Source: an uncultured bacterium (lineage in GTDB: Bacteria; Babelota; Babeliae; Babelales; Babelaceae). Taken from it: DNA of 64,000 nt. Position numbers: made by a program. The stretch is taken from positions 416,001 to 480,000 of the forward strand of contig OY970209.1 in NCBI GenBank assembly GCA_963713855.1, given 5' to 3'. Below are positions 33,001 through 36,000 of this stretch, in pieces; within the stretch, counting starts at the first letter, position 1; each line of letters starts with the position of its first letter.

Positions 33001-36000
33001 TCAAATGACGTATCGGTTGTACCCCTTCTTCTAGGTGCAGTGTCGGAGGGCGACGCAGGTGATGGTTAAGGCAGTGATCTACCTTTAGGCGTCATCATAG
33101 GAACTTCTGTAGGTGTTCCTTTGGGTCTAGCCGTTTTAGCAGCTGGAACGAGTATAGTTGGTTTATTGGTTTACAATTACTTGCACAGGCATCGCGCAGG
33201 CAGCGTTAATTTTGACGGAAACGAATCCTCACAAGCTCTTTGAATTTTTCAGCATCACTAAACTTTTTTGCGTCCGATTCAAAACCTTTGTGCTAAGAAA
33301 AAGCACCAAAATAGGTTGTTCTCATTGTCAAATTCGTGATTTTAGGGTATTCTATGATTTTAAGTACATCTTTGTAAATTACTTAAAGCAATAGCATGAA
33401 AAAAAATATACTATTCCTTACCTTTCTTTGTTTCACGCCATATTTAATGGGGGCTCTTCCTAAAGCGACTAAAGAACCCGTCTATCTTCTTGAGCTTGAT
33501 TTTCCAGATAGCGTCAGCAAGGATACAGCTGGTATTAGCTCTGTGTATCACGGAATGAGTGTTCCTTTTGAAGATGGTTTGTGTCAATTGCCTGAGCGTA
33601 AGCTTAAAACTTTTTTTTCGCTTATTTTTACTGAGACTATTGAGCGCAAGAGTAATGGCACGTGTCATTTTATTGAACGGATCGCGGATGCGCCGTGTAA
33701 ATGGTATAATCTGACCCTGCACTTGAAGGAATCTGAAGATGCTTCGCATTATGAATACAACTGGCAAGTAGAAGAGCTTTTAAAAAGCCAGATGCCTTTA
33801 CGCATACCAGAGCACGCTGGTATTATCGTCCAGCTTCCCGCCGATTATGTTGCTGGAATTAGTGATGAGGAAGATGTCACGCGAAAAGGGTATTTCGTTT
33901 TACATTTGCCTAAAATATTATTACGCAAAGATCTTACCCAAGAAGAGATGACGGAAAAGCTTGATGAAATAGCGCGTGACAAATTAAAGGTACGAGTTTT
34001 TTGCCCTCTCGTACAATCTGAGACTAAAAAACATGCCCACTGTAGAGTACGCCATATACCACAACGTTGACGCAAAAGATGATTGTTTTAGGTATCGAAA
34101 CTTCTTGTGATGAAACAGCTGCTGCCATCTACCAAACGGGCGAAGGAATCATTTCTAGTTATCTTTTTTCACAAACTGAGCAGCATAAGCGATACGGTGG
34201 TGTTGTACCAGAAATAGCGTCAAGAGCACAGATCGAAAAAATACGAGATATGGTCAATAGCGCGATTAAAGGGGCTCAACTGACCTTAAACGATATCGAT
34301 GTCATTGCTGTAACTCATACTCCTGGACTTCCTGGATCCCTTCTTGTTGGTCTTTCTTTTGCTAAAGCTCTTTCTTACGCTATGAATAAGAAGCTTGTAG
34401 GTGTTAATCACCTGGAGGCACACGCTTTTTCTGCGCTTATTGAGCATGACGTGCCATTTCCCTTTTTATGCTTGACAGCTTCTGGTGGTCATACTGCTCT
34501 TTATAAAATAGAAGCTCTTGGAAAGTACGAAGTGCTTGGCAAAACGACCGATGACGCTGCAGGCGAAGCTTTTGATAAAGTTGCCAAAATGATGCACTAT
34601 CCCTATCCTGGAGGGCCAATTATAGAGCGACTAGCAGAGAAAGTGCAGTTTCAAGATTTTTTTCATTATCCGCGACTTAAAAAGCCCTCGCTTGATTTTA
34701 GTTTTTCAGGTCTTAAAACGGCTGTGTTATACGATCTTGTCAAAAAAACTGCCTACGATTTAAAAACAAAAACGTTTACCGCTCGCGATGATGTTCAGCT
34801 TCATGAGTGTGTTGCAAGTTCGCTTCTTGTATGTATCGCTGATATCTTTGTCGATCGTGTAAAAAGAGCTCTTTTGGCGCATCCCGAAGTTAAGGCTCTT
34901 ACCTTTGTGGGAGGGGTTGCCTGCAATCGTTATATTAAAGATCGTCTGCAAACACTTTCAAAAGCCAATGGGTTACCGTTTTTTACGCCCTCAATGAGCT
35001 ATTGCACAGATAACGCAGCTATGGTAGCATTTGTCGGACATTACAAAGCACAACAAGGGCTTTACGCCGATATGACACTAGATATCACTTATTAAGGTGT
35101 TGGACTTGTAGCTCCGCCGCCTTTTTTGTTCATGGTTTCAAGAAATTCTTCATTTGTTTTGGTCTTTTTAATCTTATCTATAAGTACTTCCATACCTTCT
35201 ACTGTGTTCATGGTAGATAAGAACTTCCGGAGCACGCGTACGCGATTAAGTTCAGTTTCAGGCATTAAAAGCTCCTCACGGCGCGTACCTGAAAGAAGAA
35301 GGTCAAATGCAGGAAATATGCGAAGATTTGAAAGCTTACGGCTCATATGTATTTCCATATTACCCGTGCCTTTGAACTCTTCAAAGATGACCTCATCCAT
35401 GCGAGATCCGGTCTCTATCAAAGCGCTTGCAAGAATGGTAAGTGAGCCACCTTCTTCGGTATTACGTGCTGCACCAAAAAAACGCTTAGGTCTTTGGAGT
35501 GCGTTGGCGTCAATACCGCCTGTTAGTATTTTTCCCGATGCCGGGGCTATTGTATTATAAGCGCGGGCAAGCCTCGTGATAGAATCGAGAAGAATGACGA
35601 CGTCAAGGCCAACTTCGACAAGTCTTTTTGCTTTTTCAAGCACTATCTCAGCAACCTGTACGTGCCGCTCTGCAGCTTCGTCAAAAGTAGAGCTAATAAC
35701 TTCAGCACGCGCCCCTTTGACAAACCGCCTCATGTCAGCAACTTCTTCCGGTCTTTCGTCAACGAGTAACACAATAAGGTAGACCTCCGGGTGATTTGCA
35801 ACAAGGGCTTGAGCTATCTCTTTTAAAAGCATAGTCTTACCCGTTTTTGGTGGGGCTACGATGAGGCCTCGCTGGCCGCGTCCAATAGGTGAAAAAAGAT
35901 CCATTATTCGTGTTGAAACGAAGGTGGGATCAGCTTCAATGTTGAACTTTTTTTCAGGATGCAAAGGTGAAAGTCGATCAAAACAGAGTCTATCGCCTGC

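Follow-up and report, generated by a model that had tools for sequence, protein, structure and literature searches.

The gene for the threonylcarbamoyl-AMP (TC-AMP) synthase TsaC/Sua5 is missing from about 70 of 189 high-quality Babeliales genomes, and this absence is genuine and has arisen repeatedly. It is also strikingly one-sided, with the synthase gone while TsaD, TsaB and TsaE are kept. The initial annotation had named three options for one family of this order, the Babelaceae, namely a non-homologous synthase, supply from the host, or another job for TsaBDE; this proved to be the right set, but the restriction to Babelaceae was too narrow, and the options differ in likelihood. Of the three, host supply fits best, and it is reasonably probable that the bacteria either obtain host TC-AMP through a repurposed ATP/ADP-carrier paralog or make TC-AMP with a synthase whose fold is new. 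The genome under study (G000, GCA_963713855.1) is a single contig of 1.52 Mb rated 91% complete, and the window is a stretch of 64,000 nucleotides (contig OY970209.1, positions 416,001 to 480,000) that carries tsaD (Table 1).

Table 1. Features of the G000 genome that bear on its t6A pathway
Feature	Coordinates	Strand	Evidence
tmRNA	window 31048..31423 = contig c[447048,447423]	-	ARAGORN
smpB, conserved upstream neighbour of the tsaD locus	window 31993..32448	-	NF003843, 181 bits; synteny
Conserved Babeliales protein, 224 aa	window 33396..34070	+	Stop overlaps tsaD start
tsaD, tRNA N6-adenosine threonylcarbamoyltransferase, intact, 342 aa	window 34067..35095	+	TIGR03723, PDB matches, active-site residues
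rho, convergent with tsaD	window 35092..36432	-	TIGR00767, 641 bits
tsaB, 243 aa	contig 381061-381789	-	TIGR03725, 100.8 bits (cut-off 69.3)
tsaE, 143 aa, unfused	contig 635118-635546	+	TIGR00150, 91.2 (cut-off 60.1)
Empty ancestral tsaC slot	contig 142004-142287		pilin-folC synteny

The open reading frame flagged in the window encodes TsaD, as evidenced by a score of 375 bits to TIGR03723 (cut-off 296) and by matches to PDB TsaD entries at E~1e-73. It had been placed at 34079..35095, of which the end is correct; translation starts at a TTG, and position 34079 is the ATG of Met5. The neighbouring 224-residue protein has a signal-peptide-like N-terminus and a predicted fold that is all-beta plus one helix (model pLDDT 87), and 63 of 71 loci (40 tsaC-less and 23 tsaC-bearing) have a member of its family directly 5' of tsaD. 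No Pfam family was matched, the best fold-search hit had a Z of 3.0, to CnaB/pilin-type beta sandwiches, and an Atlas search gave a top score of 0.86 that serves as a lead only, so that no clear relative emerged from Pfam, Atlas or fold searches.

The absence of TsaC/Sua5 from G000, claimed by the initial annotation, is borne out by PF01300, lineage HMMs, nhmmer and slot synteny alike. A PF01300 search that detected 14 of 14 controls had no match in this genome at E<=10. Babeliales TsaC/Sua5 proteins, 16 short and 14 long, served to build lineage-specific HMMs; applied with --max to the 43,841 pieces of a stop-to-stop six-frame translation of the genome, these reached a best E of 0.35, and nhmmer found nothing for tsaC at E<=10. 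With three tblastn queries no match at E<0.05 had been reported earlier; with 30 queries one appeared at E=0.018, which is chance level because of the number of queries run. A hidden or divergent tsaC in G000 was thus rejected, as Pfam, three custom HMMs, the 30-protein tblastn and nhmmer all stayed at chance level, and what the genome lacks of the canonical four-protein t6A pathway is the TsaC/Sua5 gene with its PF01300 domain and KRSN tetrad. HypF, TobZ/NodU and RibB were also rejected as stand-ins, since PF01300 (which covers HypF), PF16861 (TobZ/NodU type) and PF00926 (RibB) are all absent from G000. RibB was present in one of five genomes tested. Across the family, the earlier count of 40 of 41 Babelaceae genomes without TsaC was reproduced, with G010 alone passing the PF01300 cut-off; eight other family genomes have PF01300 matches below it (E 0.02-0.7), and the native TsaC of G010 is itself divergent (93 bits, TIGR00057 cut-off 123).

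In relatives, the short native tsaC, with its KxR and SxN motifs kept in most copies, is flanked by a type IV pilin gene on one side and a folC-like gene on the other. The gap between these two genes measures 933 bp in G010, where tsaC lies inside it, versus 285 bp in G000. The pilin gene was located in 33 of the 41 family genomes and 30 loci were obtained, among which 27 (G000 and 26 relatives) showed a gap of 211-550 bp that holds neither a tsaC remnant nor a gene replacing tsaC in place; of the remaining family loci, one was rearranged and one ended at a contig edge. The closed slot inside contigs demonstrates that tsaC was deleted, being neither missed nor lost in an assembly gap. Outside the family, 30 PF01300-negative genomes were checked, one per genus, and the folC locus was found in 29. 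The pilin gene was still nearby in 14 of these loci, 13 of them without tsaC and the other, in G074, with a truncated tsaC pseudogene carrying two stops; eight loci had a DHH-type gene (named by sequence motifs) directly upstream of folC, six were rearranged, and one belonged to G205, where a contig break falls within tsaC. In addition, the lineage HMM uncovered a decayed tsaC remnant in G089. An in-place replacement gene was rejected, since slots outside the family, too, are either empty or occupied by unrelated genes specific to their lineages.

The loss had been framed as a Babelaceae trait, and this framing gave way to an order-wide and recurrent loss on the evidence of family counts, the TsaD tree and the pseudogenes. 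PF01300 was detected at E<=0.01 in 149 of 251 phylum genomes (148 over the cut-off) and in 120 of the 189 high-quality Babeliales genomes (119 over the cut-off); the figure of about 70 of 189 without tsaC is a fair one given a false positive in G171, whose match is HypF only, and the false negative G205. PF01300 passed the cut-off in none of eight f8, five f11 and five g22 genomes (two families and a genus, respectively), and tsaC was missing from 4 of 5 f17, 21 of 75 f3 and 12 of 33 f10 genomes. The lineage HMM returned nothing at E<=0.1 in 75 of 79 PF01300-negative genomes, and its matches among these 79 plus G010 comprised G010, G074, G205, the G089 remnant and G077, the last at chance level. 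A quick tree of 71 TsaD sequences requires 15 changes in tsaC presence, at least six of them forced by strongly supported branches, and some of the changes may be regains. Sisters of mixed status were found in G095 and G112, in G208 and G154, and in G061 versus G055 and G130; within Babelaceae the gene may have been lost once or several times, as the quick tree gives no firm placement of G010. Moreover, a long two-domain Sua5 occurs in scattered genomes at unrelated loci and forms a group apart from the native short TsaC, consistent with a re-acquired foreign gene.

These data also bear on the possibility that tsaC is present and was overlooked through incomplete assembly or extreme divergence. 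G205 is indeed a real false negative, the G010 protein falls below the TIGR00057 cut-off and G000 is not rated fully complete, but the slot is closed inside contigs, several PF01300-negative genomes are single-contig, and the single-copy genes for TsaD and TsaE, detected in 188 and 186 of the 189 high-quality genomes, were missed in just one and three of them. Furthermore, the lineage HMM was sensitive enough for the decayed fragments of G074 and G089. Such an artefact is therefore largely refuted and hardly credible.

As the initial annotation stated, tsaB, tsaD and tsaE are kept in G000, and all three exceed their family cut-offs. Their products are single-domain proteins of normal length (Table 1), with no additional YrdC domain of the kind seen in TsaC-TsaE-type fusions, and G000 has an intact set of TsaE motifs, as have 29 of 30 loci, those recognised by motif pattern. 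TsaE was found in 39 of 39 family genomes, and TsaB in 76 of 78 tsaC-less genomes of a chosen, mostly high-quality set. TsaD, which is over its equivalog cut-off, has the Zn ligands H111/H115/D300, and the pocket residues S9, C10, P82-G83-L84, S136-G-G-H139, D167 and N272 are kept, with S9/C10/P82/G83/L84 making up the threonine-side-chain pocket; the corresponding E. coli residues, which bind Zn and a TC-AMP mimic and include those for threonine-side-chain selection, are listed in PMC7913687. The 14 Zn, TC-AMP and threonine-pocket residues were invariant in 47 of 47 tsaC-less and 24 of 24 tsaC-bearing TsaDs, in an alignment of 71 loci taken from 241 positives by best score or by hand, a choice by which damaged copies are under-represented. 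No column was near-fixed for a new residue in the tsaC-less rows. The invariant pocket argues that t6A is still made, and its synthesis in tsaC-less Babeliales is, judging from sequence, quite probable.

A slight relaxation of TsaD constraint is suggested for tsaC-less genomes by two comparisons. The 24 tsaC-bearing rows share 93 invariant columns, compared with a median of 81 (74-90) for tsaC-less subsamples of equal size, and the TsaD/Rho distance ratio, with rho as rate control, was 2.08 inside the family, 1.45 for non-family tsaC-less pairs and 1.71 for tsaC-bearing pairs. For the closest pairs, tsaD dN/dS was 0.089 in tsaC-less versus 0.056 and 0.125 in tsaC-bearing genomes, indicating purifying selection in both groups, though with imprecise estimates, the synonymous sites being saturated.

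Such relaxation could be taken to mean that t6A is absent or strongly reduced and that TsaBDE is kept for RNA or DNA handling, for regulation or for another acyl adenylate. t6A has been reported as dispensable in D. radiodurans, B. subtilis and S. mutans, and a single AsnRS change as suppressing its loss in S. pneumoniae (PMC12632869), while archaeal KEOPS is described as having a t6A-independent essential role (PMC10989989). MtaB and TcdA are both absent from G000 as well; across the phylum, MtaB passed the cut-off in 1 of 251 genomes only, on a 3-kb contig that is possibly foreign, and the ThiF/TcdA family occurred in 2 of 251, so that their near absence makes them uninformative as witnesses of t6A. 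Against a different role stands the threonine-specific pocket, invariant in all 47 tsaC-less TsaDs even though family TsaDs are only ~54-73% identical to that of G000. The retention of TsaB and TsaE tells against it too, the known role of TsaE being to reset TsaD for turnover (PMC9654439). The same holds for the enzymes and tRNAs around the modification. The IleRS of G000 is of type 1, scoring 680 and 651 bits against structures of that type as opposed to ~320-333 against the longer one, and a type-2 IleRS that would make t6A dispensable was thereby rejected; TilS is also encoded, and t6A is reported to be a determinant for the IleRS of E. coli and possibly for TilS (PMC12632869). Among the 38 tRNA genes of G000, 13 are ANN readers, and all 13 keep U36-A37-A38, compared with A37-A38 in 14 of the 25 other tRNAs. 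With pocket conservation, retained TsaE and TsaB, type-1 IleRS and TilS, another job for TsaBDE is weakened and appears unlikely.

If t6A is still made, TC-AMP might come from an ancestral non-YrdC enzyme, either a moonlighting adenylating enzyme or TsaD with another partner, that rendered tsaC redundant. This would explain the intact TC-AMP pocket and the recurrent loss equally well and would spare the cell from moving an unstable metabolite across membranes. The search for a replacement covered the YrdC-fold Pfam families, the tsaC slots, TsaBDE fusions and the tsaD-coupled gene, and each of these spoke against it: the three YrdC-fold families are absent, the slot is without a gene in 27 family loci, and TsaD, TsaB and TsaE are unfused, of normal length and, in the case of TsaD, without a newly fixed residue. 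The tsaD-coupled 224-residue protein was rejected as a TsaC replacement, as it occurs with and without tsaC, looks exported from its signal-peptide-like start and is modelled as a beta sandwich, with no YrdC entry among the 39 structural matches of Z>=2 to the model. A non-YrdC synthase is accordingly a doubtful explanation. The initial annotation had identified no replacement, and neither a specific transporter nor a replacement enzyme was found here either.

As for host supply, loss across many families implies that the bypass must be available phylum-wide. Host Sua5/YRDC would make TC-AMP, to be taken up as an adenylyl conjugate with ancestral TLC/NTT nucleotide carriers as the most plausible route, and the bacterium's own TsaBDE would still place t6A on the ANN-decoding tRNAs of these intracellular protist parasites; a phylum-wide import route would render tsaC dispensable and lead to its repeated loss, and the occasional re-acquisition of a foreign long Sua5 would suggest that the supply is imperfect or host-dependent. 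Gene content is compatible with such a route. Each of the 80 genomes tested, 40 with and 40 without tsaC, encodes at least one TLC/NTT carrier; in G000, three divergent TLC genes form a tandem array (contig 915342-919558). The phylum is described as parasitic, with ATP/ADP translocases that are duplicated and partly altered (PMC4776705, PMC4378268), some TM6 NTT paralogs carrying substitutions at key residues (PMC4776705), and NTTs elsewhere are reported to transport NAD (PMC5381601). In addition, free TC-AMP is accepted by TsaBDE with a Km of 1.5 uM, and its reported half-life is 3.5 min with Mg and 16 min without (PMC7913687); it is also called unstable in PMC9654439. The growth of two isolates of the phylum inside a wrapping of host mitochondria (PMC6561590, PMC8812299) likewise counts in favour of a host source.

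Carrier phylogeny and copy number keep the import step conditional. When 146 NTTs of 54 genomes were placed in a tree, no clade proved specific to tsaC-less genomes, and mean NTT copy number was similar (3.4 in tsaC-less versus 3.2 in tsaC-bearing genomes, p=0.2). Only in family f3 were three or more copies commoner without tsaC (9 of 12 versus 4 of 19, p=0.008), in a post hoc comparison that ignores kinship. Mitochondrial-carrier family members numbered zero in G000 and were found in two of five genomes tested. TC-AMP is also unstable and would have to compete with millimolar ATP at the carrier, both of which count against import. Overall, we consider it an even chance that TC-AMP from the host comes in by way of these phylum-wide nucleotide transporters.

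The host might instead provide the Sua5/YRDC protein or ready-modified tRNA. Such provision has been proposed for N. equitans, and mitochondria are reported to import Sua5 (PMC10321239). The close contact of the two isolates mentioned above with host mitochondria would favour this route too. Import of modified tRNA is countered by the 38 tRNA genes, including the 13 ANN readers, that G000 keeps, and it would make TsaBDE dispensable, whereas TsaBDE is kept. For uptake of a folded host enzyme into such a bacterium, we know of no route. Taken together, provision of protein or tRNA in place of the metabolite is highly improbable.

The same pattern is found in cultured material. Noda2021 (AP025250, locus L253), a described isolate in Vermamoeba vermiformis (PMC8812299), has a complete record in which the slot is empty and PF01300 is missing; the same holds for four other named records. 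The deposited tsaD of Noda2021 contains a one-base frameshift. A single near-identical contig in sequencing run X1, which may be the source of the Noda2021 DNA, has an extra base at the frameshift site and a different one-base gap elsewhere, which points to long-read indel errors. No RNA run was among the matches when sequencing runs were searched with this tsaD.

The pattern of a lost synthase and a kept transferase has precedents. TsaC or TsaC2 was reported in all 9,176 bacterial genomes of one survey, in which TsaE is named as the component lost by intracellular bacteria (PMC4615747), and TsaC/Sua5 is counted among ~60 universal proteins (PMC10321239). Since most Babeliales keep tsaC and all surveyed bacteria have TsaC or TsaC2, intracellular life alone is insufficient for the loss. 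With the canonical TsaC/TsaC2 plus TsaBDE system of E. coli, B. subtilis and T. maritima, Babeliales share the TsaD, TsaB and TsaE motifs and the U36A37A38 ANN tRNAs, and differ from it in the deletion of the TC-AMP synthase from the tsaC-less genomes counted above. The only organisms named without the TsaC/Sua5 family in the text of a 2023 survey are two cultured DPANN archaeal ectosymbionts (PMC10321239); 'Dependentiae' does not occur in that text and one supplement, and the figures and figshare lists of the survey could bear on this. Literature searches, with most subscription papers outside their coverage, found no paper on the t6A pathway of this phylum.

Nanoarchaeum equitans and Nanobdella aerobiophila are likewise host-dependent and without Sua5/TsaC, and N. 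equitans keeps KEOPS; host supply has been proposed for it as a hypothesis, with TC-AMP transfer judged unlikely at 90 C (PMC10321239). Unlike these 0.5-0.7 Mb archaeal ectosymbionts, Babeliales are mesophilic and intracellular, with assemblies of 0.5-2.4 Mb, repeated losses, nucleotide carriers and cultured isolates. The remark that tiny insect endosymbionts also lose tsaC is correct, as in the obligate intracellular Buchnera BCc (PMC9035817), and the N. equitans case makes the precedent wider than that. tsaC retention is described as mixed among insect symbionts (PMC10540940), and reduced Serratia symbiotica keep the gene (PMC5013485). Losses in insect and leech endosymbionts are isolated and occur in tiny, generally eroding genomes, some with co-symbionts, whereas Babeliales almost never lose the remaining pathway. 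Similar to Babeliales, the Plasmodium apicoplast has a transferase, a Kae1 paralog, without a local synthase, no Sua5 having been detected (PMC4615747), but it is an organelle that imports nucleus-encoded proteins and not a free-standing parasite genome. In Chlamydiae and Rickettsia, SAM and NAD import follows the same logic, the synthesis step being lost, the user enzymes kept and the adenosyl cofactors imported; these two cofactors are plentiful and much more stable than TC-AMP, for which the literature searched describes no carrier.

In summary, a bacterial order loses tsaC repeatedly while guarding the downstream enzymes. If host supply is true, a universal tRNA modification would be completed across a host-parasite boundary by way of an acyl-adenylate that lives for minutes. 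Each outcome is informative, be it host-to-parasite transport of an unstable adenylate, a novel enzyme for TC-AMP synthesis or a role of the whole TsaBDE complex apart from t6A, and each bears on the question posed by Nanoarchaeum and the Plasmodium apicoplast and on whether free TC-AMP diffuses in cells. The scale of the loss, the intact threonine pocket and the existence of a cultured mesophilic isolate make this standing question directly testable in Babeliales.

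Radical SAM genes of the MiaB-like type were restricted in the phylum search to families f7, f9-f12, f15, f16, and f21, and were absent from f1-f6, f8, f13, and f17, the exception being a single MtaB that lies on a short G020 contig. In G000, the genome under study, no match to a MiaB/MtaB/RimO-type enzyme was found, and its tRNA-Leu(CAG) carries A37. The G020 MtaB gene (L205, G020:C120) and a HypF gene in G171 (L021, G171:C7) each occur on a single contig of a metagenome-assembled genome and look atypical for the phylum; both contigs may represent binning contamination.

Positions of the features described here
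Feature	Location	Strand	Locus	Remark
Three-gene sugar-nucleotide cluster	window 27333-30427	+
Unnamed protein family member	window 33396-34070	+		directly 5' of tsaD
Divergent FolC-like ligase	G000 contig 142288-143709		L039	adjoins the tsaC slot
Three TLC/NTT carriers	G000 contig 915342-919558		L169-L171	in tandem
tRNA-Phe(GAA)	G000 contig c1329267-1329341			G37 instead of A37
tsaC pseudogene	G074:C13:16393-16671		L218

The unnamed family is Babeliales-wide; in 63 of 71 loci (L069-L138) its gene immediately precedes tsaD. The structure predicted for the window member is confident (pLDDT 87), with no PDB match at Z > 3.0. As for tsaD itself, the deposited genome of the cultured tsaC-less isolate (Noda2021; AP025250) contains a one-base frameshift (L353) that a read-derived contig lacks, and this frameshift is probably a sequencing error.

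Within the sugar-nucleotide cluster, one gene is dTDP-glucose 4,6-dehydratase-like, with a sub-cut-off TIGR01181 score of 302 bits. The other two had no NCBIfam match; presumably, they resemble a TylF-type methyltransferase and a rhamnose epimerase/reductase of the plant/giant-virus type. The N-termini encoded in the cluster look signal-peptide-like. With regard to the TLC/NTT carriers, the proposed route for importing host TC-AMP, identity to the first copy is only 25-28%, and the TIGR00769 scores of all three (48-89 bits) fall far short of the 387 bits required for a canonical NTT.

The FolC-like ligase beside the tsaC slot is conserved throughout the Babeliales, and the G000 protein scored below the folC cut-off, with 405 of its 474 aa scanned. 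At the ancestral slot of G074, a truncated tsaC pseudogene with two stops was detected, and in G089 a tsaC remnant (L220), interrupted by two TGA stop codons, persists on a different contig; these copies are tsaC caught mid-decay. Moreover, a long two-domain Sua5 occurs in scattered Babeliales genomes at variable loci (L006-L019), in some cases alongside the native short TsaC, and its presence in the order is a probable case of horizontal re-acquisition.
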